Positions 5,080 to 45,835 of a stretch of 64,000 bases of DNA are shown one piece after another. Origin of the DNA: Blasia pusilla (taxonomy: Eukaryota); NCBI GenBank assembly GCA_050084515.1, contig CM114271.1, positions 10,044,001-10,108,000 of the forward strand, in the 5' to 3' direction. A program made the translations under genes and the position numbers. Position 1 is the first letter of the stretch. The number at the start of each line of letters is the position of its first letter. The notes beneath the pieces were generated by a model, which saw nothing but the letters and a program-made list of their open reading frames with translations, did no database searches and was not told the DNA's origin.

Positions 5080-6086
5080 GTTGACTTCAAGGGACCAAAT
5101 TAGAACTTAGGTTTCCATTTAGCCCTATTCGCCCTTTGTATACGTTTTGCATAAACCTAGCAAATGTAAGAATAGAGCTCATTCTTCATAAGCTATTTGC
5201 AACTCTAGAAAGACTACGGAAGGAATATTCTATGGTTAGATATCATAACTAAAGTTTTGACATGGGTGAAGTACTCACAGCCACGTCAAAAGAAAACATT
5301 ATGTTGGCTCAATTCTTCTATGTAAGGGAGAAGTCCAAGGATGTGCTGAACCGATTTCAAATCCACTGACATACACTTTTAGCATAAAATATTAGGTAAT
5401 AAATTATCTATTACAACATCATGCAAAATACTACTATTTGGGACGTCAATCATCATACAACAAGAAAAGACATTAAAAAAGAGATACCTCCAAACAATCC
5501 TAATATATCTTCAAAAAAGGATCCAAGGAATGGAAGTGGCCCACCATTTTCATGGTGTACGCTAAACCAGTAGCCCTATAAGGACTTAAGTTCCCATTCG
5601 ATCTTGAAATTTCTTGTGGAGATTTCAAGACTATACAATGACAAGCCAATGATTGTCTATCAAGATATTTGGCCTATTGTATCCAGAGTGACTGTAAGGG
5701 ACATAATCAAAACTTTAGTTCCAAATCTTCTTTTTCTCTTAAGCAACATAATTTATAAAAAAAAAACCAATTGAAAAGTATTCGTAAGTATAGTTCCAAA
5801 TGACCTTTGATCCACTTCTTGTCCTCTAATTTGAAAATAGTATAGTCTTATTAGAAGTAGCCTTGCACTTGCCCATGGAAAGAATTATTTTGGTCAGGCA
5901 ACAACTCGTGCTATAAGAATCAAATCTTAAGTTCCAATTCAAAAGCTTTTAGAACTATGGTAGCCTTTCACTTGCCCATGGAAGGAGTTGTTCTACTTCT
6001 AGAATAGCTTCTACATTCAAAATGGGATCTTAAGTGTAAATTAAAAAGCATTTAGAACTATATTCTAAATTACCTCTAATCCATTG

Positions 6087-6329
6087 CAAGGTTGTATAGA
6101 AATGGACATGTCCAAACATGTGGACACACATGCTCGGCCCGCACCCACATCCAAGCCCACCCAAAGCCCGCCCAATAGACCCAGGCTCACAGAGCCCGCA
6201 CCCGTTGCGTGGCCCATAACTAGGCCCGTAGGGCGGGCTCAGGTTTGGGTGCACGGGCCCGCACGGACATGTTTTTCCATAGGACAGACATAAGTCCGCG
6301 GACATGGACTTTGTCCATGTGTAACCTTG
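6087..6329. mobile_element. Small non-autonomous hAT-like MITE (243 bp)
   Basis: Termini CAAGGTT...AACCTTG, subterminal GGACATG/GCCCG repeats, GC-rich in an AT-rich context, and an 8-bp TSD ATCCATTG/ACCCATTG (7 of 8 match). Confidence 0.65.
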
Positions 6330-23500: not shown

Positions 23501-24541
23501 GAGGATAGGTTTGCCACCTAGACGTATTGAGGGAGACGTGGGGCGTGAGGCTAGGATGGTTGCTCAAACACAGCAATTGCAACAGCTGATTTCAGTAGTG
23601 GCGTTAAGGTTACCCGACGCCAGAACAATGGCATCGACACCTTATGGAGAAGCATAGAAATGGAGGATCTTGGTTGGATATGCACGGCTGTACAAATGGA
23701 GGCATCCGTTTGTGTTACGCGTGGAGCAGTTGCATAGTTGGATCCACAAAGAGGGGAGGCCAGAAAACAGACCCGGCTTCCTCTATCTATCACGTTGTCC
23801 AAGGCGATGAAGACTCCATCAATGGGTCCTGATCAGAGTTCTTGGAGGATTGATGTTGTGGGTATGTAGGCACAAAGGGCGATGGGAGAAGTGAGTGTGA
23901 TGACTCCTACTGCATATGCTTATGTGGAGCCCTTGTCGAGTACGTTATTGGGGGTAGCCACTACTATGTACCGCGCCCCATTGTTTTTTGCTTTTGATGT
24001 TATGACTTTGGGAGGTATGCCAGCTGAGATTCCCGGATGGTCGCTATGCTATGTGAAGGTGGAGTTGGTTTTCTTGCATCACGATCAAAGGTGATTGAAG
24101 AGGAGGTGATGGACCTTCCCTTGGAGCCTGTGCTCGGGCTGTCCACCTCAAAGTGAGGAGCGGTAAGAGGAGAGGAAGAGAGGAGAGAGGAAACTAGGGT
24201 CAACCGAAATAGATACTCTTTTTTGAAGAGAGTTTCCGTTGGGTTGAAGAGAGGAAAATTTTTGTTTGAATTTTTTTGCACTTTTTTGTTCATATATTAA
24301 GCGATCCCACGCTTTTTTTTTTCCTCTTCCATATATTGGCAACCCTCTGAGTCCGACGAGTTGCAAATTGCACAAAATTTAGAAAACTGAAAAATCACTT
24401 TGGAATCATAAGTGTGGAACCAATCACTTTTTCCATCCAAGGTCTCAAATAATCATCATTTGCAGGGGCTGAATAGAGTTCAAGCTCGAAGTGAAGGTTG
24501 AGAAAAAAATAAAAGTACAATCTAAAACCTCCTTTGCATCC

Positions 24542-27500
24542 TCAAAGTGGTTTGTTTAAAATACTTCGAACTTCTTTGAGGGACAGAATTGGTTGGTGGA
24601 TTCCTACTCTTACCTCCGACTCTCTTAAAACTACCAGCAACACATAGTACATGTGCTTACAAGGGAAATACCTTTTGCCACTTGTCTCTCTTTGGACAAA
24701 GTCATCACATGAACATGTGGGAAAGCAACAGATGTGCACCACATACACCCCTGTGACACTTGAATTTACAATGTTGTTCTTGACCCAATACAACCTTCCT
24801 ATTCCATTGCCACTCAAGACATCTTTCGTGGCGATGATCTCCATTTTTGCCTCCCGAGCTCCTGCAATTCGCTTTGCTCTCTCCACCGTTGGCCTGCACA
24901 TTCTGTTTCTCTTCACCCCATTTATAGACTCAAACAAAAATAATGGATTGAGATCATCCACCTTCTCCGGGTACATGTTGACATCAATCTTGGGTTGAAT
25001 ACAAAATTGCGAAGGTCTCTGTAATGCGAACATGCTCCGAACTTCCCCCGTCTACGAGTCTGAAACCGGCACTTGTAAGATTGTCCACTTCGTCTTGAGT
25101 GCAGTTCGTGCCTGCGGCGATGAGCCAAATCGTGGGGGTATTCCCGGGAGCTCCAATGGCAGCCGGATAAGACTTCCGAAAGCGCAAGATTCATTTGGGC
25201 AGAAGAAGTACTTCAATTGATCCCCGGTTCTCGTGAAACGATCAAAGGTTTTGAGTCCCCAAAACCCAGGCAGAGGTCGTCCAGTCCTTGTACAGTTCTT
25301 ATTTAGGAAATTGCCGCATGCTCTCCTAATGCCATCAGATCCTGCCCTACATATGGGTCCACGTCCTGGGTTGCTCCGAGACATATGCCACCATTTTAGG
25401 TTGCAATCCACCTCCATTACCGGAATCCCATATTGTTGAACCACCCCAGTGACAGGATGTTGCGAACTTCCTGCAACGGAGGGCTTTTGAAATAAAACAT
25501 TCACTGATTTTGGAGAAGTAACTCCATCACGGATTTGGGACGAGTCCGGGGTCCCCGAATACCTGGGCGGTGTAACTTCCTCATCCAAATCAATCACCAG
25601 ATTCGTTCCTCGATGCTGCCTCTTCACCTGCCTGAAGTCAAGATACTTATCTGGTCTCCACGAGTCTCGTTCGGACTGCTCTACCACCATCTGCATGAGA
25701 CGTCTTGAAACCCGCCCATGAAAATCCCCACCTATGTGTACGTCTTGCTCGAGTGGAGTTCCAGCTACGCATCGGTTGAAGGCTTCGACATACAATTTTT
25801 CATCACCAGATCTCACAGCCGCCCTGACATAGAGCTCGTAGATCAACGGCCCTTTCCCTTTTGTTATGCCTTTTGTGAGAAAGATATGGGATGCTGCAGA
25901 CTGTAGCATTGCTCTTGCCTGGTCTTGTTGGCATGCCTCCACAAGTGAAATTTGTTGGCATGCTTGTGACGACCTCCAAGAGGAATGAACACTTTATGCT
26001 CCACTTGTGTTGGGGCAGAGGGCATTTTCATGAACGTTCAATCCCTGCAACGACGGCAATGTTAGAAGGGAACAAAAATAACTCAAGAGTCAAAGAAATA
26101 AGCGACTTGTCGGAACTAGACGGGTTGCAGGCCCGAGGCATCCCAGGAACGACTCTACGACCCGTCGGGTCCCGACGTGTTGTAACCTTAAACCCACCTA
26201 CTGCAATACGTTGGGTTGCAAGGCCGAGGCATCCCATGAACGACTCTGTGACCCGTTGGGTCCCGACGGGTTGCACACTCGGGTTGCACCAAACATCTGG
26301 ATGCAACCCATCGGGTTCCGTCAGGTTGCACACTCGGAAACCCGTCGGTTTCCGTCGGGTTGCACACTCGGCAACCCGTCGGTTTCCGTCGGGTTGCACA
26401 CTCGGGCAACCCGTTGCATCCGATAGCTTGCTTGGTTTCTTGGGTTTGAAATCCATATAATTCTCACGCTTCTCACCCTGAGCTACAACTTTACAAATAA
26501 TTCTCAGCGTGAGCTTGACAAGACAAAATAGTGAACTCACCTGCCGCATGAAGTTTCCCCATTGTCTCATACGTACAGTCCACCAACTCAACCAAGAGCA
26601 CAACTCTTTGTACTTCCCCTCAATTGCATGCTTCCTCCACCACCCATGAAGTTCTTCCTGGCATTCCATGGCCTGCTTGAAGGTTTTGTTGTCCTTGCAG
26701 TGTTGGAGTAGAGTGACATGCTCTGTCCTCTTATTCTCCTTGATGCAAGATTTGGTGTACCGGGTCACAGACTGTTGCCAATGGAAAGCATCCAACCTTT
26801 CCCTCTCCGGTTGAACCTCTCCACCCCAGAACACTTCCCGGATAGCAATCCACCCAGGTTGTGCATTGTCCGCCATGAACCCATAAATTTCCGGAGGTGG
26901 CCTTTTGTTTTCCTTCACCACCTCCAATAAGAGTAACCAGCACATCTTCAAACTGCCAACGTCTTCTGCCTTTACTTCACAAACAAATATAGTTTTGAGT
27001 CCCTTCTCCACATGGTCATAAACATGAGCACCCATCGTCAACCATCCGTTCAGCACTCTGTAGCAAATATCAAAGCTTACCCAGCTCCCGTAAAGATCTT
27101 CCCCTTCCCTCATTCGATCTATAAGATCGAGGCCACTCGACGGACCTGTGGTTGACATTTTGAAGACATAGGCCCTGGATCCCTCGCCTCCTTGGCCCAT
27201 GAACTGCCATCTGTGAATGAATGGAAATCTGGAGTTGGCCTTGATTCTGGCGATGGCATCCATTTCGGCCGTCTTTCCATCCGAACTCAGATCGACGCAA
27301 GACAAATTCGGAAGCATTCAAGATCAGCGAGAAATGCGAGATTTTCCCAGAGTTGTTTCTCCTCAACCGCCTTGATCTCGCCCTGTCCAGGGATTCCAAG
27401 CAATTGTTCACAAATTTGTGATGCCGTTGTGAGCTTGATCACTCCGAGCTTTGAACCCGGAGAGTTTGTGTAGACCTCGGCTACTTTCTTCGCCACATCC

Positions 27501-28548
27501 TCCTTGATGTGTCTTTGAATTGCATCGGTCACAGGATGAGTGTGGGAGCCAACATGGACAGCCAGCCTTGTATACTCTGACGTGGAGCCCAAGTCGTGGA
27601 CAATGAAAAATATGTATGCAGGACACGCTCCAACGTAGAAGGGCGATGCCTAACAATGAGGACATCGATGGCCTCCCGGCGGTATGGTGGCACCGACCTC
27701 GTATGGAGTTTCTGCATTCTTGGGAGGGAATTGCGACATATTGACTCGCCCGTCGCGCTCTAGATACGGGCATGCTGGACTTCTACACTCCAAGGCTCCC
27801 ACGCATTGGCGGCGGGAGACAATCCAAGGACCATCTGGAATTGAAGCACTGGTCCGTTGAAGCCTGCACCATCGATGACAATCATACTTTCCGTCCATAC
27901 CCTTCAGGCGTCCTCCATCCTTCTTTTGAGCAGGAGCAGCAAGTGGAGGCAACTCAAAAATGCAATTACCATCGAACGTGGGCAGCAGCTCGTCGACAAG
28001 AATGTGCTTGAACATTTTCAAGGGCAGAGACAAAAGCAAACTATTTCGTGATACTCGCAAGAGGAACGAGTAGGCGGACAGAGGGCCCGATTGGTGTCAA
28101 GCAGATCCATCGAGGTTGATGACATCCGGAATTTCTTCGGGAAAAACAACATTATTCTGGCGTCGCGGGTTGGAGTCAAAGCCGGATGTGCGAGCTTGGA
28201 GTTGCAAACGAGAGCTCGGAGCACTAGGAAATTCTAGACCGTCTACTTGGGAAACATTTAATTCAAAGGCGGGGCGTAAAATCTGTATTGACCATTTGGT
28301 ATAGGTAGGAGATTCCATACTTTACGGTCTGAGGTCACTGGCTGGACCGTCTCACCTATTATGTCTTCTGTACTGTCCACCCTAACATCTTTGGATACAA
28401 AGATGGTTCCAATTTGAAGAAGAAATCGAAAAGACAGAAAATTTTCATCCACTGCTATGAAAGACTCACGAGCTTGGGGTTGAATGATTTCCGATTGAGG
28501 AAGGGCCGCCAGATGACTGCCAGAAGTGAGCTTAACATAATTATCCAT
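24542..28548 (-). pseudogene. Mutator-like DDE transposase with N-terminal GCM-like zinc domain and C-terminal SWIM finger; intron 26045-26540
   Basis: Contiguous ORFs give PTFDGNCIFELPP...MDGKYDCHRW...CVGALECRSPAC...CPHC...HVGSHTHP, then WVSFD (D at 27069-71), GFMAD (D at 26868-70) and RERLDAFHW. After a GTGAGT..TGCAG intron comes PNTSGA*SVHSSW, then SWIM CSC..CKH at about 24651-24720. Several frameshifts and stops. Confidence 0.8.
26104..26421. repeat. Palindrome cluster A, in the transposase intron
   Basis: About 7 copies of CAACCCGTCGGNNNCCGNCGGGTTG, including tandem 34-bp units CAACCCGTCGGTTTCCGTCGGGTTGCACACTCGG. Confidence 0.9.
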
Positions 28549-28811: not shown

Positions 28812-29475
28812 GCAACCCGTCGGCATCGGAGGGGTTGCACGCTTCTGCTAAACATTGTCGAAGCGAGCAATCCGTCGCTCTCCGACGAGTTGCTCGGATA
28901 CCGCTCCTTCTTGCCCGAAGATGCCGGAGGCGTGCAAACCGTCTGTTCCCGACGAGCTCTGCGGGTGCCTCGCCTTTTAGCCCAAAGACGGCGAGGCGTG
29001 CAACCCGTCGCCCTCCAACGGGTTGCGCAAGGGCCTCGCCTTGTGGTGCAGCCAGCCAGACTCCGACGACTTGCACGGGAAGCCCTCGTTCTTAACCCTT
29101 GATGAGGGAAGCATGCAACCCAACGGTCTCCGACGGATTGGCCAAGATATGTCCCGTTCCTGTCCCAAACACGGCGGAGGTGCGCAACATGTCGGTCTCC
29201 GACGGGTTGCGCGGGTACCTCGCGTTCTTTTCTGAAGACGAAGGAGGCGCTCCACCCGTCGGTCTCCGACGGGTTGCTCACGCACGTGGCGATGTACCCA
29301 GGATGGCGGAGGCGCGCAACATGTCGGTCTCCGACGGGTTGCGCGGGTACCTCGCGTTCTTTTCTGAAGACGACGGAGGTGCTCAACCCGTCGGTCTCCG
29401 ACGGGTTGCTCGCGCACGTGGCAACATAACCCAGGATGGCAGAGCCGCGCAACCTGTCGGACTCCGACGGGTTTC
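28812..29475. repeat. Palindrome cluster B, a 66-67 bp period array between the two divergent genes
   Basis: 11 copies start at 28812, 28867, 28934, 29000, 29048, 29115, 29184, 29251, 29316, 29383 and 29449. A 132-bp higher-order duplication spans 29184-29448. Confidence 0.92.
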
Positions 29476-29572: not shown

Positions 29573-31076
29573 GGGCAGAAATCGCTCATTTCCGATTTCT
29601 CATTTCGCGATCTTCATTCCTCACTCTCCCGCGCAGCAGCTCATCAGATACGAAGGGGCATTTCACACGGTGACACATCGTGAGTCGATAGGAGGGAACG
29701 AGAGCGAGACCGTTCGACGCAACGACAGCGAGACGGTTTGACCGAGCGATCGCGGGACGATTTGAGCTACCCATCAAGACGATTCGAGCTCCCATCTCGA
29801 CATCAGCAAGGCGACTGATCAAGGGATTCATCGTGGACATAGGTGGAGGCATTTCCGGAAAAAATGACGAGGAAAAAATCACAAGCCAACAAGTTTGGGA
29901 GCTTCACTCCGAAGTCCATTAGGACTCTTGCGTCAGCTTCTCTTGGGCCTCGTTCGGCAAATGAAATTAGGCAGCGTGAAATCGAGGAGCGGGAAAGGGA
30001 AGTGGAGATGCACAACCAAGTGCTTCTTGCGAGACGTGTTCAAGAGGCGCTAGATAAACAGAACGCAGAGGCTGAGACGTCGCAGGCCTTGAAGAAAAGG
30101 ATCGCCGACGAAAATAGAGAAAAGAAGCGTCTGGACGCGTCGGTGAGGAGGGCAGAATTTTCTAAAGCGAGGAGGAAGAAAGTGATAGCCATTGACGATA
30201 GCCCAGCCCGTCCAACCGCAAGTCTTGAGATGCGGGAAATGTCCCCCACGAAGTCCGGGGACACAATCAACATAGTGGAAATGCCAGAAGTTGAAATCGA
30301 TGACGACGAGGTCATGAGGACCGCCAGCGTGGAGATGGTGGACATGGCCGAAGAAGCCAGAGAGCGGTCATTCTCGACTCCAAGCCCGGCGGAGGACATC
30401 GATCTCTATCGGATCGATGAGTTCCCAGTCGATTTGCCAGCCTCTGTCTCAGACAAGTTAGCTGGTCAAGAAACCGACCCCATCTTCGAGCGGGTAAGAG
30501 AGGTTCTAGGTTTTTTGAATTATGTGAATTGCAATTCATTGGGATTTGAGTGTAGCTTATTCCTCTTGTCCCGGTTCTAACAGGTGGTAAAGCAGATGGC
30601 ACTCATGGAAGGCCACAACGCCCCGAGGATTCCACTCTGCCGATTGCGGACAATGGAATACGTCCGCGAAATTCAGTCCGACGAGGACATCGCGGCTAAA
30701 ACAATCGGGCGGCGACAAAGATCCCACGTCGGCGCTTTCCTCCCTTCTATGTTCAGCCTTACGACGAGCATGGAACCCAAGCTTTGGTTACCGAGGAGGA
30801 CTTGGAAAAGCTCAACACATTCTGGAGGATGCGAGACCAAGACTTCAGAAGGCAAGTTGAGGGCACGGAATTCAGCTGGATGAGGAATCTGCATTTCTTC
30901 ATCTGGGATGGAAATCACAGGTTCATGGCGTGGACCAAGTTTGCGGAGGAGCGGCCCAACTCATTGGAGGCACATTTCTGCGTGAAGGTAGTGGTCCTTC
31001 ACCCATACCCTCATCACATGGCGACGGTGGAGATGGCAATGCATGCCATGAACACGTGAGTATCTTTAACACTTTC

Positions 31077-31441
31077 GCAACTCGTCGGACTCCGACAAGT
31101 TGCTCGATTGATGAATGGGTTAGGTTTTTTTTGCCAAAAGCAACTTGTCGGACTCCGACGGGTTGCTCGACTGCACGCTTTTTTGGATGTTTTTTTAAGA
31201 TTGCAACTCGTCAGACTCCGACGACTTGTTTGATTGAACATAGATTTAACTAGTTTTTGGCCCAAAGCAAACCGTCGGACTCCGACGGTTTGCTTACTAG
31301 GCATTAGCAAATCTGAATGCAATCCGTCGAACTCCGACGGGTTGCATCATTAAGCTCGTTGCTAAAATCCGACCTTGAGCTCTGACAACCCGTCGGAGTC
31401 CGACGGGTTGCAGGAACCCATGTAATTTCCTAACGGGTTGA
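31077..31441. repeat. Palindrome cluster C, intron 2 of the ParB-like/MTase gene
   Basis: 6 full copies (31077, 31140, 31203, 31267, 31319, 31385) plus a half site, period about 63 bp, core GTCGGACTCCGAC. Confidence 0.92.
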
Positions 31442-33634
31442 GTTTGGATGTGCAGGATTGTATCGGAGGGGAATGTCACCCACCACTGGATCCATGATTG
31501 CGATCGGGTGAGGAAGGTGCTTACGACGCACCCAGGAGAGTATAGGGGGTTCTTGGGCGATGCCCTCGTCAATCAGATGCTCGCAAAGGGTGCTCAGATT
31601 AAGAAGAAAACTTGGGCAAACAAGTTTATTTCTCAAGATGCAGTAGTAACCATCCTTTGCTGGTCGAAGATACAGGCCCTGCATTGGAGCTGGAGCAGAG
31701 GGAGAAGGTATCTGCGTCTGAGCGCGCCAAATTCATCCAAGCTGCAGTATCTGTTGCAACGAAATACACAGCAAGCAAGATGCAGCGATACATCAGCATT
31801 CTCAACCCCGAACTTGGTCCGGAGTTCTACAAGGAGCTGAAGGCGATTTTCAAGCGCCAGCGGAAGAGGGATGAAGATCCGAATGGTCGGATTGGGGAGA
31901 AAGTGTCACTCGATTGCGTGCATCGGTTTGGGTTGTCCGAGATAAGCGAGTTCAGGAGGATACGACGGATGAAAATCAGTCTCGAGGGCTCAGAGGCCCA
32001 GAAGAGGGCGGCACACCATCCTCTGGGTGTGTCCGATCCAGTGATCTCGCATTGGCTACGCGAATGGTCATTCTGGGACGCGTTGCGGGTAATCGGGAAG
32101 TCCGTGCTGGACGGTCTGCAAGCGGAGCTCAGAAGATTAGAGCCCATTCCGCCGGAAGCAAACCTTGAAAGTTTTGGAGATTTCGAGGTTTGGCTCGACG
32201 ACATCCGGGAGAAGCCAACCAAAAACCCAAGATTCAAGACCATGTTCAAGGTTTGCGTCCTCCCTCAGGCAGAGCTTGACGAAGAAGTAGAGAGGAACAA
32301 ACGGGATCAAGCAAAGAAGAAGCGAGATCTACAGGAGCAGACGGCCGATTCTGTTTGACTAAAAGCTGCCCAACGGATGGTCTTCAGGTACCTCGTCCAG
32401 TGTAAGAACGCACGTGTAATGTCTAAGTGTTTCTTATTTACAGTCAATTGTAGAGTTTGATCCCCAAGAGGATCATTGTTGGATGAAAAGAGAATATAAA
32501 GTGATGATTATGTTGTAAAAGTGTAATTGATTATGTAATTCAAATGTAATATTCCAGTAACATCTTCCGATCCTTTTTTAGTACCTATGTTTTCTTCTTC
32601 AATTCTCTCGAGTGGAGTTTAAAGTACGCTCAGGCAATTTGTTCTCTCGACATCTCGGAACCTCACAGAGACCTCAAGAATAAAGCTAGCTTCTCCTACT
32701 TTCGGAACTCAATCCGTCGGGGGAGGTTTCTCTCTGTCAAACAGATTTCATACAACTTTATGTTGATTATTCCATTGATGAGAAAGGTTCCCCTGATTCA
32801 CTCTTCACTCGGTAGACCCAAAAAGAATATTCAGACATAAGCATCGCACATCAGAATGAATGAATGAATGCTTTACTACTCCATCAAGAATTGGAAGACT
32901 TCAAAGTATATACAAGCTCGAGAGGGTACAACTCTCTTGCTCGGACCATTCCTACAGCATAAGGACTTCATGAGCGAATGATTATAATAGCTTCTGTCCT
33001 GTTTCTTAAATATTCTCGAGAGTAGGAGCGTTTCTATGATCTGAATCGTTCTTGATGAAGTTGGTGTCTTTTCAATATCTGTAACTACCTAGATCTATGG
33101 TTCTCTTAGCTTTTCCTACGATCCCTGTGAATCCGCGGTACAAAACTGTTCTAACTACCAATTTGATACAAAGGGTCGCGCCCTTTCCTAGTCTAATTGT
33201 TTAAACTATGTGTCGGTTCGAATCACAATCATGTTGAGCTTCGCTGCGCTAAATTTCCGGAGGACGAGTTCTTCATTCTTCTTCGTCTTCGTGCTTCGTG
33301 CTTCGTGCAAGAGCAAAGTACTTCGTAAACAGAGCTTCGTTGAGCTTCGTTAGATTTTTTTAAGCTTCGCTGAGCTTCGCTGAGCTTCGCGTTGATCCTT
33401 TATACCGTTCTGACTTTTGATTCTCCTCTAAGGCAAATCCTTGATCTTCCATCTCTCTGCCTTGTCTTAGGAGCTTGGTGATTCACTTATTCTTCTTCAT
33501 AATAATAAATAATCATAATCAAAATCATAATATACAAGAGTCTTCGTTGAATAAAAAGATATATTCTTCAAGATTACAAAATTGTGGGTATCACATACCC
33601 CCTCCCTCAAATGTGAGCCGCCCCGGCGAACACT

Positions 33635-35551
33635 TCATGATGTGTCTCCTATCTCCATAAAAGTGTCGTCTAAACTATCAAATTCAGGGGTAGGCACAAA
33701 ATGGCCATGAATCGTAGAAGGTTTGTTGATAATGTTAGGGGTATGATTGCGCATTCTTTCTCGCGACTTGTTAACCACTAAGTGACTCCCTAGGACTTCA
33801 TTCAGGACTAAGACATCAAATGGAGTGAATGCTGATAATTCTTCAAGAGTAAGTGAAAGAGTGCGTACTACTTCTGGAAGAGACTTAGTATGATTGTCGA
33901 ATTGGCGCTTCCAATGTTTGTTGATGTAGCCGATTTCCTCGTTCATCTGCTCTCCGAAGTTCTTGCTTGCTTCGTCGACCAGCTCTTTGACATCTTCCGG
34001 GTCCATCTGGGCTTCGCTGAGTAGCTTCTGCTCTGCCTCCAAGATTGCGATCCTCCCGGTAGCCTCCGCCCACTGCGCCAATAAGTCTTTGTTCGCTTCT
34101 TGATGTTCTTAAAGCAACTTCGAAGACTCAACATGTTGGATCGACAACTTCTTGAATTCGGTGTGAACCCGCCATATTTGATGTTGATACTTGTCAATGA
34201 GGTGCGAAGCTTCCTTGATCTGCGAAACTAACTGATCCGCCCCACATTCGAGGTTAATCTCCAAACTTTCCCATTGGCGTTGCTCGTGCTTCAGATCGAC
34301 ATCGACCAAGTCGCTTTGAGCTTTGCGAAGCGTGGTCTTTGTGTCCTCGAGTTCCTGATCCCGTAATTTCAGATTCGTTTATGCTACTCGACGCTGTACT
34401 TCGTGGTCGGACAAAGCTTGGGCTCTGCAGTTGAGGTCGTGCAGGCCTTCTAAATAATCGTCCACGGACGCTGTATCCTCAAGGTGAAGAACCCGCTGGA
34501 GTTGGTTCATGACGGGAACTGCCAATTGCAAGAACCATATCATGTCGTTTGCCGTCTGCGACATGAGTCGAAGTGCAGGTTGATGATCCCTTGCCCGCGG
34601 GGTCTCGTCGGAATCCTCCTGCATGACAGGTTCTGGGGCCGGGGGTGTTTCAAAATTGACCCGGCCTCGCTTTGGCCGAGGCATTTTGTTGGTATCTTCG
34701 TCTTTCTTCAAAGCCGAAGTATGAGGATGTTGCTGAGGTGCTTCGAAGGGCGGGGTGACTTCGCGGCTACCCATGGTACTAGTTGCGCCTTTCCGTGGTA
34801 GTCGGACGGGGGTCACTTGCGACCAATCTAACGCCTCCTCTGCGGTTAATTCCTGCTTGTGAATATAAAGATGGATCAAGAAAGGAGATAGGAAGGACTT
34901 CGTGCTTGGATGAAGCACGTCCACCATTCCTCGTATGTGCCCGTCCACAAAAGCAGCAAAGTCGACTCCTGGGGCTTCGGGGTCAAGGTGCTGATTCCAG
35001 ATGATGTAGCACATCTTCAAAAGCTTATTTGTCAGATAGTAAGAACGAGCGGGATAAAACAGGGTCATCAAATGTTTGCAAAACTGACCAAATACGGGCG
35101 GAGAGAGTGACGAAGCCTTGTAGCCGTTCCTGCCCAAGCGCTCAGACGTGACACAGCCGAGTGCTAAAAGATCTTCATGTTTTACTAGCAACTCCGTGTC
35201 ATACTCGTACTCTGGTGCAACCGGGAGCAGATAAGTTGCTCGCCAGTCGTCCGCCGTCCAGTGTTGGGATTGAGCTCGATACCGAAGACCCTTCTCTCCA
35301 AACTTGGCGACGGCAGACGCAGAGCGAAGCTCACCCAAGAGTTCTCCGGATGTTAAGGTCCAGTTGGCTTGAAAGAAAGTTGCCAACGATCGCTCCTTGA
35401 GCGCTTCGATCAGCTCCGGTGACAGCTTGACCATCGGCATCGCCGCGCTTCGCAGAATGGGTGTGGAGTCTTCGCGAGGCATGTTGCTAGGTCGATCTCG
35501 ATGGACACCCCGCTTTGGCCTGCTATGCAACTTCGTGGTGATCCCGTCCAT
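33635..35551 (-). CDS. Extra 3' ORF of the Athila-like element (env-position ORF; globular N-terminal domain plus predicted coiled-coil tail; interrupted)
   Basis: The 390-aa ORF 34379-35551 lies downstream of integrase in the sense orientation. It is continued by ORFs 34109-34309 and 33635-34081 up to the PPT. Confidence 0.65.
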
Positions 35552-35867
35552 GAAAATACCCGCTTGGTTACGCCGGACTGCTCTTATAGTCCGCTCCCCC
35601 CTTGTCCGTTCTTGGTCGTGGCGCCGAGGCTATAACAAGAAGGTGGACGCTTCGCGTCTTTGCCACGCTCCCCCTTCCTCACTTCCTGCGCTTCGCTGCT
35701 TCGCGAAGCATGGGATGTCTGGAACCTCGGTGCTTCGCTGCTTCGCGAAGCACGGTATATCTTGAACTTCTGTGCTTCGCGACTTCGCGAAGCTCGATAT
35801 GTCCTGAACTTCGTAGCCGCTACTGCGGAAGGCATGTGGTGTTCGCCTACCCCTTCCTCATGTTTGA

Positions 35868-38800
35868 TTATCCTCGGTTCGGGCTCATAATACCGGCGAC
35901 ATGCATTCCATTGACTCGCGTGGGCGTGGATTCTCCGTGTAAGGTTTCTAATTGGAGGGATCCATTATCATAGATGGCCAATACCCGGTAGGGTCCCATC
36001 CAATTTAATTTTAATTTTCCGGGGAACTTTAGCCGCCGGTTATCATACAATAGCACTAAGTCGCCAACATTGATAGATTGTGGCCGGAGATGTCGATCGT
36101 AACGTTTCTTACGTTCTTTTTGCACTTGGCCTGTCCGGCGTAACGCGAGCATGCCTGCTTCTTCCAACTCCACTAGGGTCTCATTCCTGTGTTCGATAAC
36201 TTCGCCCGCAGCTTCCGTTCTTGTGCCCTCCAATACCCGGTAAGTGGGCAACGCCCATTGAATAGGTGTTAAGGGATGTACGCCATAAGTCAGGAAGAAC
36301 GGGGTGTATTTTGTCGTCACCTTCTCAGCTGTTCGGTACGCCCATAATGCTGGGGAAATTTTCGTGTCCCAATCATAGGAATATGTTACCGTTAATCGAT
36401 TCAATATTCGGCAAATGAGGCCGTTCGATTTTTTCGTCAACCCGTTGGCTTTAGGGTTGTAGGGAGTGGTTTTCCGATGCTTAATGAGAAAATTGGGAAG
36501 TGAGAGACTCAATAGTCTGGTTCAGGAAGTGCGTACCCCGGTCACTTACTAGTTCCAACGGACAGCCATAGCGCGTGATAATCATCTCGTATAAAAACTT
36601 AGCCACTGCTTCACTGTCATCTTTCCGCGTGGCTAGTGCTTCAACCATCTTAGTACAATAGTCCGTGACGATAAGAATATACTTCCGCCGAGTTTGGCGA
36701 GTGGCCGGGGAGATAGGGCCCACGAAGTCAATGCCCCATTTTTCAAAAGGAGCTAGGGGCATGATGGGGACCAAAGGCCACCCAGAGTCGCTGTGGGTCG
36801 ACCGCCCTTTGGCAGCATCACAATTCGAATAAAATTACCTACGTCTTTGTACATAGTCGGCCACCAATAACGTGCGGCCAAAATTTTCTTAACGGTATTT
36901 TTTACTGCATAGTGTCCACCGGAATCAGCCATATGCAGGGCTCTGATGACCTGGGGAACCTCTTCCGCTTCCAAGCATCTTTGATGCTCTTCATCAGCAC
37001 CTAATTTGAATAAGACCCCTTGTCAGATCTCATAAGGGCCTATCCGATGTAAAAAAAACTGCGCGTTCTTCCCCGTCATCGTGGTAGGAAGTCGCAGAGT
37101 CATTAGAAACCACAGAATATCCTCATAAAATGATCGGCTCAACGTTCCTCGTTATCCGGAAAGATCTTCATCGGAAAGGTATCATCGCAGATTGGGTGAG
37201 GTCGCGTTTGTCATCCTCAACCGGGAAAGAAAATCGGCATTGGTATGCACCTTGCGGCAGACGGGTCACAACATCAAATGTGAATTCTTGTAGCAACAAG
37301 ATCCACCGTGCAATGCGCCCCGACAGTCGGCTTTCACCATTAAGGGTCCGAGTGCAAAATGATCCACATGAAAGACAAATTCGCACCCTAATAAATAGTG
37401 TCGGAACTTTTACACGAGAAGACCATGCCTAACGCCTCGTTCGGTAGTTGTATATTTTGCTCTGCCGTCGATAGTTGTCGGCCGGCGTAGTAAATTGAAA
37501 ATCATGTTTGTGCTCATCCAATTGGTGAGCACTACCCAATGGCAATGAGGATGTGTCCACATACACGTGGAAGGGTTTGGTCCAATCGGGGACCGGGCAC
37601 AGAGCCTTTTGCAATGCGTCTTTTAAGGTGTCGAATGCCACTTGGCACGCTGGTGTCCACTCCCATTCGGTGGTCTTCTTAAGTAATGCAGTAAGAGCGC
37701 CCACTTTTACCGCGTAATCTTTAATGAACCGTCGATAGTACCCGACATGTCCCAAGAATCCTCTCAATTCCCGGAGATTAGTGGATGGTTCCAATGTCGA
37801 CCTCAATTCCTTGCGCCGACACTCGGTGTCCCAGCAGAATTCCTTGTTTCATAGCGATATATGATTTGTCCGGATGAAGGGACAAATGCACTTCGCGACA
37901 GCGTGCGAGTGTTAACTCTAACTTTTCCAGATGTTTGGGCTCTGTGCTAAAGATACAAAAATCGTCTAAAAAGATTTCCACGAACTTCCGAAGATAGTCC
38001 TGGAAGATGGAGATCATCATCCGTTGGAAAGTAGCTGGGGCATTGCACAACCCAAAAGGCATTACGCGATATGCGAAAGTTCCCCAGTCCGTCGTGAACG
38101 TTGTGAGGGGACGATCCTTTTATCGTATGGATACTTGGTTGTACCCCGAATATCCGTCCAAGAAAGTATAACGCTCGTGCCCGGCCACTTTATCCAAAAT
38201 ATTGTCAGTGAAAGGTACAGGATGGTGGTCTTTTAAGGTGGCCGCATTTAATTTTCGATAGTCCTGGCACACTCGGATTTTGCCCGTTTGTTTTTTAGGC
38301 ACAATTACGATGGGCGACACCCACTCACTGCTTAACACCGGATAGATTATTCCTACCTCGAGACGCTGATTGATCTCGTCCTTGACTAACAATGAATACT
38401 TTGGATTCAGTCGATATTGTCGCATCCGTACCGGGACCGCCCCTTTTTTAAGATCAATTCGGTGTTCACCATATTGTGCGGGAATGCCTGTCATTTCATC
38501 CATGGAGTATGCAAAGACATCCAAATACTCAAACAGTAGTCTTTTATATTTTGTAAGTGTGGTTGGAGACAAATCCACCGAAAAGCGTAGAGACTTTTGA
38601 TCTGCAATATTGACCTGGACGTAGTCCTACTCCTGAATTTTTTTTTTTGTAAACTGGAAGGTGCTATGACCTAGCTTCTCTTCCTCTCGAGTCGACCTTG
38701 GCTTGGAGGGTACTGCCTCCTCGTCTATTTCATAACATTCTAAATAATATACATTGGACGAGGACTCGAGAGCGGTGGTGTTGTCTTGATCTCGACGTAT

Positions 38801-41227
38801 AGCCGCCGTCGGTCGGTGGCGTCTCTCCTTGGGATGGTCGAGATTTCCACGGCTTGACTTGATGAGCCGCCGAGTCCCCGATTCGGCGCTGGAATGTGAA
38901 ACGTCGCCTTTTCCAATCAGAGTCACCCTCGCGCCATACAGCCAGGGTCTTCCGATGAGCAAAGGATAGCCCGTCGCGGTCAGGGGTTGCAGGACTAAGT
39001 AGTCCAATGAAACAACACACCCCGAGCATGGTCGGAATTTGCGTGATGCCGAGGGGTCTCTTCCGGATTGATCCCAAACCGCAAGTACTTGTCGGTGGGC
39101 TCGTGCACAATGCGTGTACCCTAGGCCCGAGCCGTTTGCTCGTCATAATATTGATTCCGCTTCCGGAATCAATGGGGACCTTCTTAATAGTATGGCCCTC
39201 AATCTCCACCTCCACTTTTGGGGCTCCCAAGTCTTCTACTTTGATGCGGAACAAATCCACCACTGGCAGATGCTTCACCGACTTTCTGGGTCTTTTGCGG
39301 CTGATTTTCCACTGCTGCAAGATTTTTCCGTATACTGGGTTATCCATTAGCAACTATAGCAGGGTTATGTTGGCCGGGGTTGACGCCAAGTCCCTCAATA
39401 AATCGTAAGCTTCTAGGACCAGTGGTGATTTCGCCATGGCTTGGACTGTCGTACTTGGTTTGGCCTTTGTCTTCTCTGGGGTCTGTTTCCCCTCTGGTCC
39501 CTGGGCCTCCCGAACTTGAGCACGGACCTGGTCCTCCACATCCTGATGGAAGTATTTCGGATGACTTTGGTCAAAGGCCGGGTCCACATCGCCTTTGAGG
39601 ATGGCCTTCCCGGCACGTAAGGTGCTCACAGCTTTGTTCTTGGGTTCCCTAGCTTCGCGCGAAGACGAAGCACCCTTCTTTACCTTTGGGGTCCCCGCGC
39701 TCTGACTCTTCGATCTTGTGGTGACCGCCAACACAGTTTCTTGAAATTCTTTGGGCCAGTCCAATGATTCCTCGTTGGCCCCTTCGGTCGAGTCTTCCTC
39801 ATTGATGGTGAATCGCTTTGGTCTCGGGGACACTACTTCTTCCACCCGGATCAGTTGTACATTTACATCGTTCTTGGGCTCTGGTTGAGCCGCGGGAGTA
39901 TTTACGTATCTGACCAACAAATGCGGGACCTTGGGCTCCAGGCATTCCACGGCAGTGTGCCCGCCCTTCTTGCAGTTCCCGCATAAGGGATTGAGTCCCA
40001 CTGGTCGCTTCGGGTTTGGGCAATTATTGGCCCAATGGTCTACTGTGCCGCAGTTATAACAAAAATTTCTTTTGATGGGTGGCGTGAAGGCCGCCGCACC
40101 CATAATCTGTCTCAGGGGTCTTTGTTCTCCGTATTCCGGAGGTACATACCGCGTGATCCAGCTTCTCCCAGGGTTTGAGGGTGGTACCGCTTGAACGGCA
40201 TAGCACCCTTCCCACTGTTTTGGTTCATACCATCCTTCTTCAATAGGGGCCTCTTCCTGGATCCACCGCAGATCCCTCTGAGTTGGGCATTCTTGTACAG
40301 TATGCCCCTGGGTTCCACAACTACTACACCAAATGTTGGGCCTCATCAGCCCGGGTCGTCTTCTGGGGTCCTTCTGGGCCGCCAGATGTACCTTCAACTC
40401 AGCCATTTGTTTACTGAGTTCCTCCATGGCCGACTTGCCGGCCTTCCTTGCCGTCCCTCTTACTGGACTTTCCGACCACTGAGGACGACGCTTGGTACTT
40501 GGTCGGGTTTTGGTCTGGTGCTTGGGGGAGCGATGACGCCTGCTCTTCCCTTTCCTTTTAGCTTTTACCTCCTGCTCCGAGTCCGAGGACTCGGACGAAT
40601 CCTCTGTAGAGGATTCCGTGTCGGTGGAGGACGCTTCGTCTTCGGACCAAGCACTAGTCTGCGACGCCCCTCTTCGTTGGTGACACCGTCTTCATGTTCG
40701 GCGGGACTTTTCTGAGGCTTTGTACGCCTCAGCAGAGGCTATGACCGCCTCAGCAGAGGCTATGACCGCCTCCAAGGAATCCCGTTGGCCTCTTCGACAA
40801 TACCGATCCATTTCTTTGGACAAGCCGGACACGAACCAATCTACCAATTGGGAGGTAGTCGTGTGTTCTAGCTTATTCACAAGGCTCCGGAACCGTTGGG
40901 TATATTCCCGGAGGGTCTCCCTCTTTCTACGCTTTAGGTCGCGAAGCTTTGTAAGAAGCCTGTCCTCGAACTCCAAGTCGCGGAACTCATGTAGGAAGGA
41001 TTCCAAGACGCTTTTCCAGGTTTCCGTGACTTCTGCTCCGAGACCTTCGTACCACAGGCTTGCTCGCTTCTTGAGCAGGCCCGGAAAGACTGTAACAAAT
41101 CCTCCTCTGCCCCTTCCCCGTTGGCTTTTGCGACATGGGTGAATTCAAGAACAAAGTTATCCACATCATCTCGTCGGCCTCCAGCAAAGGTGGGGTACCT
41201 TAGCAGAGTTTTTCTAGTGTTGGCCAT
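35868..41227 (-). pseudogene. Gypsy gag-pol (gag with three zinc knuckles, protease, RT, RNase H, integrase), frameshifted
   Basis: YPTFAGGRRDDV; CSSCGTQGHTVQEC, CYNCGTVDHWANNC, CGNCKKGGHTAVEC; IDSGSG; RVCQDYRKLN; MPFGLCNAPATFQR; FLDDF; FHVYVDTS; WGIDFVGP; SDRGTHF; NWMGPY. Confidence 0.95.
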
Positions 41228-44200
41228 GGGAACTGCTCTCCTGCTGGCCCCCGGGCTTGATGCTCGAGAGGGAGGAGGTAAAGGTGCCGCCCGAGGTGCT
41301 CTGATCGGCTCCTCGCTCCCTGACTCCCCAAAGGGGTCCCAGGACAACTCTTCGTCCGACTGCGAATTGGCAGGGGAGGTAGTGGAGAATTTGTCCCTTT
41401 CTTTCTTCTTGCTCTTTGCCTTCGGACGAGGATTTAAGACTCGAGACAAACCAGCCGCTCTCAAGCCGGTTCTTTATTCTCGCCGCTATCATACCGATCG
41501 CTCATGCTGCTCGCGAAGAGGGCTGAGAGCCTTCCATAAGTCTCTTGGGGGATTTGGCAACTTGCGTTCACCCCCACGGTGGCGATAGGGTAAGGATCCA
41601 TGGATGGAGGTTAACTACTGATTCTTTTTATATCTACAGGAGGGTGCCTGGTGCTCCTACGCTTCCTGCTAGGTTTTCCTCCCATAGACAGAAGTACCGG
41701 GTTTTCACCAAGTACAACTATCGTCCATGGGCGAAACACTGTTCGGCAACTGGTTCTTTGACCATTCTAATTAGTTGGTCTATCTTCTCTAGCACCAATG
41801 CAGCAATTGTATTGTTATCTTCAAGAATACATTGTCTTATGGGGGTCGCTAGAGCTAGCCGATGGTCTTTAGTAAGAACTAGAATGTGGGGTTGTCTAGG
41901 AGCGAAGCTTTTTTCTCCGTTCCCTGCTCCCCCATGGGTCTTTCTCTCCCTTCTCAGCCAAGGATATGATCCCCGGCAGCGGCGCCAAAAAGTCTTCGAC
42001 TATATGTAATGTCTAAGTGTTTCTTATTTACAGTCAATTGTAGAGTTCGATCCCCAAGAGGATCATTGTTGGATGAAAAGAGAGTATAAAGCTATGATTA
42101 TGTTGTAAAAGTGTAATTGATTATGTAATTCAAATGTAATATTCCAATAACATCTTCCGATCCTTTTTTAGTACCTATGTTTTCTTCTTCAATTCTCTCG
42201 AGTGGAGTTTAAAGTACGCTCAGGCAATTTGTTCTCTCGACATCTCGGAACCTCACAGAGACCTCAAGAATAAAGCTGGCTTCTCCTACTTTGAACTCAA
42301 CGTGGGAGGTTTCTCTCTGTCAAACAGATTTCATACAACTTTATGTTGATTATTCCATTGATGAGAAAGGTTCTTTGATTCACTCTTCACTCAGCAGACC
42401 CAAAAAAGAATATTCGAGACATAAGCATCGCACATCGAATGAATGAATGAATGCTTTACTACTCCATCAAGAATTGGAAGACTTCAAAGTATATACAAGC
42501 TCGAGAGGGTACAACTCTCTTGCTCGGACCATTCCTACAGCATAAGGACTTCATGAGCGAATGATTATAATAGCTTCTGTCCTGTTTCTTAAATATTCTG
42601 GAGAGTAGGAGCGTTTCCATGATCCGAAGCGTTCTTGATGAAGTTGGTGTCTCTTCAATATCTGTAACTACCTAGATCTATGGTTCTCTTAGCTTTTCCT
42701 ACGATCCCTGTAAATCCGCGGTGCAAAACTGTTCTAACTACCAATTTGATACAAAGGGTCGCGCCCTTTCCTAGTATAATTGCTTAAACTATGTGTCGGT
42801 TCGAATCACAATCATGCTGAGCTTCGCTGCGCTAAATTTCCGGAGGACGGAGTTCTTCATTCTTCTTCGTCTTCGTGCTTCGTGCTTCGTGCAAAAGCAA
42901 AGTACTTCGTAAACAGAGCTTCGTTGAGCTTCGTTAGATTTTTTTAAGCTTCGCTAAGCTTCGCTGAGCTTCGCGTTGATCCTTTATACTTCGTTACAGC
43001 TTTTGATTCTCCTCTAAGGCAAATCCTTGATCTTCCATCTCTCTGCCTTGTCTTAGGAGCTTGATGATTCACTTATTCTTCTTCATAATAATAAATAATC
43101 ATAATCAAAATCATAATATACAAGAGTCTTCGTTGAATAAAAAGATATATTCTTCAAGATTACAAAATTGTGGGTATCACAGCAGGTACGTGGGGAAAAT
43201 TACCGGTAGCCTTGAAATTGTGGGCTTCGCCGCCAGATGCAGAGACATTCTCCATGTACGACGTGGAGATGGGGCAACACATGTCCGATTGGGAGGTGGA
43301 TAATTGCCCCATTTGGCTCGACTTCAACGACCCTGAAGACATCACGGATAAGGACTTACGAGTGCTTCATGATGCAGTGGCCTTAGGACAAGACGACATC
43401 CCCAATTTCGTCTAGCCTGAAGACTTCTTCGGAGGAGATGCAGAAGAGTAGGCCCACGAGACAGCTGAGTTGGCTTCCTAGGTCCGCACAGCCAAAGACA
43501 AATCCACAGTGGGTCTCAAAGGCAAGGCGAGGGGAGGGAAAAATTCAGAGGCCGAGTCTTCCCAAAGAGAGGCTGAAGATTCAAGGCCAGAGGTGAAATC
43601 GTCCGGACGAGCGGGGAGAGAGGGTCGGACCAGGTCCTCGGCGAAAAAAACGCCACCAGAATCTGAGGTCATAGAAACCCCGACAAGCCGTCCCCAGGCT
43701 AGGGAGAATTGGAAGCGAGAGGTGCCCGGGTTGTCCCAAGGAGAATACAGCCCATCATCCTTGGGAAGACACAGACAAACAACGACCGGACAAGCGTCCT
43801 CCTTGATTCACTCCTTTTCGGCCGAAATGAAGAGATTCGATTCTCAGCGTCGACACCGACCATCGAAAAATTGACAACGCTGGGACGGAAGCTCCAACGA
43901 AACGGGCACGCTGCCTGGACGGTGAATGGAGTGGTCGAAGAGGTTGCGGTGGATCTCTTGATCGCCGATATGCCCTCGGGGTTGCGACTTTGGGGCGAGG
44001 ATCCGTCGAACGAGGTACCTGAGTGGAATGTGCCGCTCTCTTATGACCAGATTGCACTTTTGTTCTCCTTTGCAGACGCCTATCTGAGTGACAGGGGCTG
44101 CTTCTTGGTGTTGATTGGAGGGAGCGAGGACGAGCTCTTCAACCTCCAGTGCGTCAAGAGGTCGCTAAAGTGGAGGACGGCACAATCGTGGATCATAAAA

Positions 44201-44312
44201 AACGAGTACCCATTCCGATCCGCGACGAGTCAGATTCGGGGAAGGCTCAATTCATGTACTATAATTTCAATTATATTTTAATGATTTGTAGAATGAGAGT
44301 CAATCTGGGTTT

Positions 44313-44707
44313 TTTTTGTCCGTGAGCAACCCGTCGGAAGGCGACGGGTTGCTGGCTTAGAGCAGCCCATGCTTGGCTGAGAGCAACCCGTCGGTTTCCG
44401 ACGGGTTGCATCTTTCCCACATACAGGGAAAACCGCGGTGTACCTGCAACCCGTTAGAACCCGACGGGTTGCAGTTGCTTTTGGTTTTTCCCAGTTGATT
44501 TTGGTTTTTGGATGCAACCCGTCTGATAGCGACGGGTTGCTCTCAGGCGAGCATGGGATGCTCTAGGCCTGCAACCCGTCGCCTTCCGACGGGTTGCTCA
44601 CGGACAAAAACAACGGAGCCCGACGGATTGTTTTGTCCCTGACCAACCCGCCGGAAGGCAACGGGTTGGTCCGGGACAAAACAACCCGTCGGACTCCGAC
44701 AGGTTGA
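44313..44707. repeat. Palindrome cluster D with two larger fold-back structures, intron 3 of the ParB-like/MTase gene
   Basis: Copies at 44326, 44383, 44446, 44514, 44571, about 44612 (partial), 44643 and 44681. Inverted arms at 44313-44412 / 44511-44610 and a hairpin at 44614-44698. Confidence 0.92.
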
Positions 44708-45835
44708 TCCAAAGTCAGTTATTGAAAATGTTCTCAAGGCGACTTCTTTAGTTTCTGACATTGTTTCCAACGTGCTAATTTATAAATGGACCACTCCTAC
44801 GTCTATTGCTTCGTTCGGCCCGAGCACAATTTCCAGGTGTTGAAGATCCAGGATCCTGTGGATCCATGCTCAGATGGGTACAGCTTAGATAGTTTGTACA
44901 ATTCCCCCCCGGGAATTTACATGCAAGACAGTACCCCACTTTTGGGAGGAAGGGAAAAGTCGCCAGCCCTGATGCAAACGCTCATCGAGCTCTGCTCAAG
45001 GCCGGGTGACTTGGTGTTCGACTTAGTGGGACTTTGAGGGGCAAGTATCAAAGGCGCCTAGCAGAGTGGCAGGAACATTCTCTGCCTCGAGGGAAGGCAG
45101 GAACTGTTTGACCTTTGCAAGGAGGCAAAGGCAGAATACGAAAGGCTCGTTGGGGCGTACAACTCTCCACCGAAGCCGAGAGCTCTGGTTCCAGAGCCAC
45201 CCTTGGTAGTGACTCCATCGTCACTTCCAACGATTCCCAAAATCGGGAGGGCAAGGCCGAAAGTGATTTTGCAAGAGCTCTCGGACGATGATGAGTGAGT
45301 TCAAAGAACTCAACAACCCAGCTTGACTGCAGCGTTTGGAGTAGGGAGTTTTTTGATAATGAGGCAAAAGATTTCATAGAATAGATCAAATGTACAGTTC
45401 CGAGATTTTTTGGATGATATAAAGCAGAAGATTTTTTTGATCGATGGTGGTGCTTGTTAATGTTTGCTGATCATAGGGGGAGTGATCGAGCCACGGCCAC
45501 GAGAGATGGCGATATTAGCAGCATTCAACAGCGCCATCACTTGGCCTAGTGATTTGATTGAGGGGCATGTCCATATAGAGGACACACCCGCACTTGACAC
45601 TTATGGGGAGAGAAGTGTTATGATAGCCGTATCATTCCATGGAGGAGAGTTGTCCCTTTGGGGCTTGATTGACAAGCTTTTACACTTAGCCGGTGAGCAC
45701 GTGGAGACGGCATGGAGTGAGACATTTGCACCAGAGCGTGATGGGTTAGAGAAACCTGAGGTAGCCAGGAGTGCTACAATGACACCCTTGGACATAACAC
45801 TGATTTTGTGGTGTATTCTAGAGGAGGGTATTTGA

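Follow-up and report, generated by a model that had tools for sequence, protein, structure and literature searches.

The locus studied here raises the question of what a gene that joins a ParB/sulfiredoxin (Srx)-like domain to a methyltransferase (MTase) is doing in a plant transposon. The window, a stretch of 64,000 nucleotides from the Blasia pusilla genome (contig CM114271.1, positions 10,044,001 to 10,108,000; coordinates below count from its first letter), had been read from its letters alone as holding a prokaryote-like ParB–MTase gene that had acquired spliceosomal introns, with a product possibly acting as an NTP-gated loader on palindromes. The location of this gene in a plant transposon is borne out by a Mutator-like (MULE) transposase, by target site duplications (TSDs) and by exact right ends found genome-wide.

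The carrier element

The gene is the cargo of a Mutator-like transposon of about 12 kb with poor terminal repeats, in which it is transcribed divergently from the transposase gene. The left end of the element, GAGG[A/T]GCGGTAAG followed by a GA-rich tract, lies at 24155..24190 on the plus strand, and a matching end is found in nine fetched copies. The transposase gene (24542..28548, minus strand, start codon inferred) encodes a C-terminal SWIM finger (Pfam, E 0.01) and is broken in the window copy. The Pfam MULE model itself gave no match in the transposase, which scores 0.96 to a MULE cluster in the Atlas and has all ten of its family matches in the same clan.

A genome search with the exon gave 150 scored matches of 92-100% identity, out of 2,561 first-look candidates, and the final 16 bases of the element occur exactly 843 times in the genome, compared with none for the reversed control. 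Ten loci of 17.5 kb each were fetched for comparison, and all ten contain both transposase sequence and cargo gene. Both ends are present in seven of these copies, which are 11.9-12.8 kb long. All seven are flanked by a TSD of 9-10 bp (five perfect, two with one mismatch), a count that leaves out the three fetched copies missing one end in the fetched stretch. The termini are weakly inverted, matching at 14 of 30 terminal bases, and do not form long terminal inverted repeats (TIRs). MULEs without TIRs exist, and the combination of a MULE-type transposase, a 9-10 bp TSD and poor TIRs identifies the element as Mutator-like with poor terminal repeats. Bacterial contamination was considered as a source of the gene and rejected because of its introns, the TSDs and the presence of copies on many chromosome-scale contigs.

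Genome searches with two diverged homologues recovered the same family again (12 loci checked, 82-97% identical). When metagenomes were scanned for the surroundings of a diverged homologue, the sole locus recovered was short and of poor quality, so that the association of cargo, MULE and palindromes is observed in the B. pusilla genome alone.

The copy in the window is a dead, LTR-interrupted pseudogene, a point that the original prediction had overlooked. An LTR retrotransposon foreign to the MULE sits inside cargo exon 3 (32415..43181, minus strand), with LTRs 96.5% alike and a target duplication of GCACG/GCAGG; this insertion is absent from all ten fetched copies. There are additional indels and stops, and mutations affect both splice sites of intron 3, donor and acceptor. 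The last sequence shared with other copies is at 45299..45474 (plus strand), where the window copy is truncated and lacks the final ~1.6 kb and the right end. Elsewhere in the window are pieces related to the inserted retrotransposon, from its LTR (about 4200-4950) and from its internal part (near 286-1104).

Internal palindromes

Within the element, a 27-bp palindrome, GCAACCCGTCG-N5-CGACGGGTTGC, recurs 31 times, compared with no occurrence in the 53,451 other bases of the window when up to 6 mismatches are allowed. Three complete copies hold 31, 34 and 44 palindromes. Almost all are found in introns, in the divergent promoter and at the ends, with a spacing of about 65 bp. In the window copy, six lie in an intron of the transposase gene (26102..26397), eleven in the divergent promoter region (28812..29475, spacing ~65 bp), six in intron 2 of the cargo gene (31077..31411) and seven in its intron 3 (44326..44707); 24 of the 31 are in or adjoining the cargo gene. 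Variation between palindromes is greatest in the 5-bp core, which reads GANTC in 157 of 363 cases.

The copies also carry a record of host methylation. Transitions per site among copies, counted after dropping a diverged subfamily of five, are 0.057 at CG, 0.058 at CHG and 0.012 at CHH, and the excess at CG and CHG (about 4.6 times CHH) indicates that the copies are 5mC-methylated most of the time. Inside the promoter palindromes the rate of CG transitions is 0.036 versus 0.057 beside them, a small and tentative dip based on 79 sites in 7 copies.

One spliced gene

The ParB/Srx domain and the beta-class amino-MTase belong to a single gene of four exons (630, 473, 2,029 and 510 nt) with GT/AG borders in most copies. 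All four are on the plus strand. Exon 1 (29864..30494) encodes a charged, low-complexity N-terminus, and exon 2 (30584..31056, flanked by AG and GT) encodes the ParB/Srx-fold domain. Exon 3 is split in the window into a 5' part with a conserved middle region similar to the Riccia sorocarpa protein R1sor_027256 (31456..32414) and a 3' part with a linker and the catalytic half of the MTase (43187..44239). Exon 4 (44786..45298) encodes the SAM-binding half. The majority reading of the gene is 1,214 aa long; it is uninterrupted by stops in the larger of two subfamilies and contains a single one in the smaller. Exon 3 is free of frameshifts in 2 of 20 copies, and no fetched copy was shown to be intact over its full length. 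Four single copies have 18-21 frameshifting indels each in exon 3, far more than others of similar identity; this excess may reflect uncorrected long-read errors in repeats, in which case the share of intact copies is underestimated.

Intron 2 (977 nt, GT..AG) is precisely skipped by four RNA reads, one and three from two stranded runs. Since exon 3 is one 2,029-nt frame that reaches MTase motif IV, the joint between exons 2 and 3 ties the ParB exon to the MTase. No splice joint for introns 1 and 3 was among those listed from the same low-depth runs, which had been chosen by species label. Reads on the cargo gene are mostly of the sense strand and of low depth; most are just 88-95% alike, so that they appear to come from related copies or a related organism.

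Both domains are also present in independent gene models, namely R1sor_027256 (1,207 aa) and R1sor_008990 of the liverwort Riccia sorocarpa and L7F22_057433 of the fern Adiantum. R1sor_027256 is colinear with exon 3, with 24% identity over 541 aligned columns (E 2e-25). The predicted fusion is thus upheld by the four reads that splice exon 2 to exon 3 and by the liverwort and fern models, and the alternative that the ParB and MTase parts are separate genes is contradicted by the transcripts. The two domains are separated by ~560 aa in the cargo protein, and this middle region had no Pfam match over the cut-off, including no HTH or dimerisation domain.

The cargo gene is under purifying selection. 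Between the two subfamilies, whose exon 3 sequences are about 86-89% identical, dN/dS is 0.010 in the ParB exon, 0.075 in the MTase, 0.118 in the middle region and 0.152 in the N-terminus. The value for the ParB exon, the lowest in the gene, reflects one nonsynonymous versus 21 synonymous differences.

The ParB/Srx-fold domain

The peptides from which a ParB/Srx domain had been proposed are found exactly where they were placed, with IPLCRLRTMEYVREI beginning at 30629 and WDGNHR at 30904-30921. The frameshift noted in this exon is real in the window copy, with indels near 30695 (-2), 30708 (+1), 30718 (+1) and 30734 (-1). Each of the four is private to this copy (0 of 25 other aligned copies) and may represent decay or an assembly error. 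Exon 2 is frameshift-free in 24 of 26 aligned copies, a share that is biased upward by the choice of copies as top exon 2 matches.

The product of exon 2 is predicted to have the ParB/Srx fold, as had been proposed. An AlphaFold2 model made from a 100-row alignment has a pLDDT of 93.2, and a search of 48,161 chains gave KorB as the best structural match (Z 8.5, rmsd 2.2, 91 residues aligned), followed by PadC (Z 8.0, rmsd 2.7, 95 aligned), Arabidopsis Srx (Z 6.9, rmsd 3.5, 89 aligned), Pnob8 ParB (Z 6.4) and SerK (Z 6.2). Just 16 of the 48,161 chains reach Z 2. Ranks 1-11 are all of the ParB/Srx type and comprise ParB, Srx, SerK, SbnI, SspE, GmrSD-type proteins and the ParB-like Atu1540; SspE, the GmrSD-type proteins and Atu1540 presumably represent ParB/Srx-type families. 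Foldseek gave ParB-CDP as its top match (E 0.024, with none at E <= 0.001), and the BFVD list of fold matches is filled by viral ParB-like proteins. Among the language-model neighbours of exon 2 are clusters with ParB_N (11% of members), DUF3723 (31%) and DUF6551 (98%). A Z of about 8 is middling when taken alone, but the top matches form a single superfamily and Foldseek, BFVD and the language model agree; the fold settles the ParB/Srx assignment.

A phmmer search with the ParB exon returned 147 homologues of 26-48% identity. The 20 that were looked up comprised nine from Riccia sorocarpa, four from Adiantum nelumboides and seven without an organism, and none came from a named prokaryote. Among the 49 homologues that reach the end of exon 2, 29 stop no more than one residue from the exon end, which points to eukaryotic exons with a common intron. 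In a set of 120 homologues that span 100 residues or more, the Box II GxxR is retained by 99 of 118, R29, which lies upstream of it, by 98 of 109, and N112 by 119 of 120. Among 30 sequences of the B. pusilla family, WDGNHR occurs in 22 of 24 matches.

Profile methods gave little at the level of sequence. Pfam matched exon 2 to DUF1015 alone, below the cut-off (E 0.008-0.013), and ParB_N matched neither exon 2 nor 100 aligned homologues. PHROGs gave no ParB match over the cut-off, with ParB families appearing for homologues at E 0.17-0.34. Searching proteins by word index with the half exon of the window gave no match, and two chance matches were all that an HMM of the ParB alignment found among PDB sequences. 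When the plant profile was aligned with eight phage ParB sequences by hhalign, GxxR was aligned at a score of 19.6; the highest-scoring of 30 shuffles reached 20.0. Run against the genome, ParB_N missed the element and had a single match, an unrelated phage-like gene on contig C23 (42397-45663), 57-60% identical to IMG/VR ParB genes, and this contig is probably a contaminant. The implied descent directly from a phage or prokaryote was not supported, given that no homologue looked up is from a named prokaryote, that exon 2 had no tblastn match in phages, and that size and motifs differ from the phage fusions discussed below. A host sulfiredoxin was also rejected as an identity for this domain, with structural matches 12-18% identical and the gene multi-copy and transposon-borne.

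A fungal cluster bearing DUF3723 scores 0.94 in the Atlas to the ParB-like exon. DUF3723, in the portions of the literature covered, occurs mainly in papers on Starships, and this domain may likewise have a ParB fold and an accessory role in giant eukaryotic transposons.

The methyltransferase domain

The C-terminal part of the cargo protein is predicted to be a beta-class amino-MTase domain, with the beta-class motif order of IV before I. PF01555 (N6_N4_Mtase) matches at E 9e-6 to 2e-4, just under the cut-off, and at 1.9e-4 in an open copy. A model of a Riccia homologue (pLDDT 46, uninformative on the active site) matches M1.HpyAVI (E 8e-7), CcrM (E 2e-6), M.BceJIV and RsrI. An hhalign comparison of the plant sequence with two phage MTases was weak.

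Motif IV reads D-M-P-S in the window copy (43967-43978) and DLPS in 14 of 19 matches within the B. pusilla family. Of the 20 homologues matched by a regex, 19 have D[LM]P[ST] and one, a fern protein, has DVPF. The final aromatic of a catalytic motif IV of the DPPY/SPPY type, which stacks on the flipped base, is thus missing from the cargo MTase, a feature that had gone unnoticed. Four phage enzymes have DIPY in two cases and DPPY in two. Because DIPY occurs in phage enzymes, loss of the first proline is evidently tolerated in nature, whereas loss of the aromatic is unusual. Motif I, which contains a stop in the window copy (region 45020-45040), reads DLVGLSG in 18 of 23 matches in the B. pusilla family, with Leu replacing the first Gly; the Riccia and fern homologues have GxG in 18 matches to a pattern that itself demands GxG. 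Methyl-transfer activity of the cargo MTase is doubtful, since the motif IV aromatic is lost and the first Gly of motif I is Leu, although the domain is conserved.

Relation to known systems

The brown-algal Ectocarpus element Sola1-1_Ec32 has a gene for a 1,104-aa protein with a ParB-like domain and an N4C/N6A MTase, opposite its transposase (PMC12477816). Citing Iyer et al. 2011 and the Bostrychia paper, its authors suggest that there is a class of transposon accessory proteins whose targets for binding and modification are the very elements that encode them. The Blasia protein resembles it in combining ParB-like and N4/N6 MTase domains in ~1,100-1,200 aa, encoded on the strand opposite the transposase of a large DNA transposon. 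The proteins are likened by architecture, and the carriers differ: a 21.5-kb Sola element with a 4-bp TSD in a brown alga, and a MULE of ~12 kb with a 9-10 bp TSD in a land plant.

Plavaka elements of the red alga Bostrychia carry the accessory genes PAG2 and PAG3, also found in Mutator elements of Chondrus (bioRxiv 2025.02.11.637652). PAG3 has a ParB-homologous N-terminal domain, whose best match, 7BNR, was found here too, and tandem inverted-repeat arrays beside the gene; a PF01555 methylase is present in the same element, and copy number is very high. In Plavaka, however, these are two genes, one joining ParB to a 2OG oxygenase (PAG3) and the other joining the methylase to a SET domain.

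Phage ParB–N6_N4 MTase fusions, found in ParB-terminase loci, have the same order of ParB followed by a beta-class MTase. Unlike the cargo protein, they are about 370-400 aa long with adjacent domains, intact DPPY and GxG and no introns, and they have no significant match to exon 2. They were catalogued by Kaljevic et al. (bioRxiv 2025.10.10.680097), a survey of ParB-fold proteins that names sulfiredoxin as the common eukaryotic member and, in the parts drawn on, makes no mention of plants or transposons, so that proteins like the one described here escape standard detection. The ParB-type HTH fused to chlorophyte Dam is a different module (Iyer et al. 2016, PMC4738411). Related literature includes the Walker 2021 preprint, Rodriguez 2022 and PMC12344493.

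The Arabidopsis VANDAL/VANC system offers a parallel of another kind. VANC21 binds intron, intergenic and terminal regions of VANDAL21 (Hosaka 2017, PMC5735166), so that a Mu-like carrier again combines an accessory gene with motif arrays in non-coding introns, intergenic and terminal regions. Nothing yet suggests kinship between VANC and the cargo protein, and anti-silencing is shown for VANC but inferred for the cargo. The Marchantia MpDN4MT1a/b and bdelloid N4CMT are likewise beta-class amino-MTases in eukaryote nuclei, one of them in a liverwort; in contrast to the transposon-borne cargo with its D[LM]P[ST], they are host genes with SPPY, shown 4mC activity and no ParB.

The ParB–MTase accessory gene of transposons is therefore of a kind already published in algae, self-binding idea included, which the original prediction did not take into account. 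The literature searched, in which subscription papers are sparsely covered, mentions neither a land-plant gene of this type nor the degenerate motif IV; within it, the occurrence in land plants, the MULE carrier of the fused form, the motif IV lacking its aromatic and the defined 27-bp candidate site are reported here for the first time. The self-binding and modification of transposons by ParB proteins is a published idea for algae, for which the Blasia family provides a concrete land-plant test case: the candidate site is defined, hundreds of genomic copies can serve as a read-out, the GxxR domain is nearly invariant, and there are homologues in one liverwort and one fern.

Possible function

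The explanation preferred here, with a confidence that falls slightly short of an even chance, is that the cargo protein serves the transposon as an accessory factor and has the element itself as its target, with VANC-like anti-silencing and NTP-gated loading on palindromes. The 27-bp palindrome would, as part of the same tentative explanation, be a candidate target of the protein, which would bind it as a dimer. The ParB domain would bind and probably hydrolyse NTP through its GxxR, so gating loading or spreading, while the MTase domain, lacking the motif IV aromatic, would mainly grip or flip bases with little or no methyl transfer. As with VANC, the effect would be to keep the promoter and the CG-rich arrays of the element open against host 5mC silencing, allowing the transposase to be expressed.

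This explanation is favoured by the ParB/Srx fold, the conservation of GxxR, N112 and R29, the dN/dS of 0.010 and the single spliced gene. The confinement of the palindromes within the window to the element, where they occupy the types of region bound by VANC21 in VANDAL21, the inverted-repeat arrays that also adjoin PAG3, the altered motif IV and the dip in CG transitions within palindromes are consistent with it as well. Against it, the copies are mostly methylated and the dip inside palindromes is small, and Pfam detected no HTH or dimerisation domain in the cargo protein. The strong conservation of the MTase and the DVPF of one fern homologue would fit an active enzyme. In the ParB-fold survey, 17 of 28 purified proteins bound no NTP in vitro, which counts against NTP gating, and NTP specificity is said not to be predictable from sequence (bioRxiv 2025.10.10.680097). 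Transposases can also themselves activate cognate copies (bioRxiv 2026.08.24.746577), so that the palindromes may be transposase sites.

A more far-reaching version, which seems somewhat unlikely, is that land-plant MULEs carry a ParABS-like module for self-recognition, in which an NTP-gated sliding clamp loads at the 27-bp palindromes and spreads the MTase over the element, where it would write 6mA/4mC or shield CGs from host 5mC. If true, it would place a ParB-type clamp on eukaryotic chromatin and represent a second, mechanistically distinct anti-silencing system after VANC, common to algal and land-plant transposons. If a clamp or a writer is indeed at work, anti-silencing would gain a mechanism that can be programmed, and 6mA/4mC in plant genomes a possible origin.

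That the MTase is an active writer is unlikely. The enzyme would put 6mA or 4mC on the element, for instance at the GANTC core or the palindrome CGs, with ParB as an NTP-dependent activator or processivity clamp, and the mark would block host 5mC or flag the element for the transposase. The beta-class fold matches of the low-confidence Riccia model to M1.HpyAVI and CcrM (E 8e-7 and 2e-6) would suit such an enzyme, as would the MTase dN/dS of 0.075, the retention of the motif IV Asp and second Pro, the motif I GxG of the Riccia and fern homologues, the GANTC in 157 of 363 cores and the existence of 4mC writers in a liverwort. However, S/T replaces the motif IV aromatic in 19 of 20 homologues, 18 of 23 motif I matches read DLVGLSG, in which Leu replaces the first Gly, and the core that would be the target varies more than the rest of the palindrome.

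It is quite improbable that the palindromes are instead bound by the transposase, or are hairpin-forming repeats with no protein partner, and that the cargo protein works elsewhere, such as on host chromatin or RNA, without sequence specificity. Transposases act as sequence-specific activators, Pfam identified no DNA-recognition domain in the cargo protein, and Srx, SerK and SbnI show that a ParB fold need not load on DNA; yet transposons of unrelated superfamilies combine ParB-type genes with inverted-repeat arrays, and 24 of the 31 palindromes are in or beside the cargo gene. Least probable is a transposition helper with no epigenetic role, which would load on the palindromes inside the 12-kb element, compact or bridge it and thereby help the transposase to bring both ends together despite the poor TIRs: the 14 of 30 matching end bases, the palindromes along the whole element and near both ends, and the DNA-clamp ParBs among the best structural matches would fit, but retention of the MTase domain would go unexplained, and a similar gene is present in the Ectocarpus Sola element, which has a 282-bp imperfect TIR.

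Genomic distribution and the right end

Right ends concentrate near the position of the window, with 49 of the first 100 listed on C1 (about 8.0-11.7 Mb), which suggests a heterochromatic or pericentromeric domain. At 42396000-42413499 on contig C3, two neighbouring copies are found in inverted orientation, one of them internally deleted. The right 1.6 kb of other copies (~5700-7400 in copy L042), missing from the window, contains two further palindrome clusters and, behind each of them, a short conserved reading frame of about 60-110 aa, e.g. ...GWVSHCRAYKVYCRGRRWD... and ...KYQGHCFLLTETGNVKKLRLTW..., possibly representing two small extra cargo genes. RNA reads accumulate on the first of these frames (6097-6350 in copy L042).
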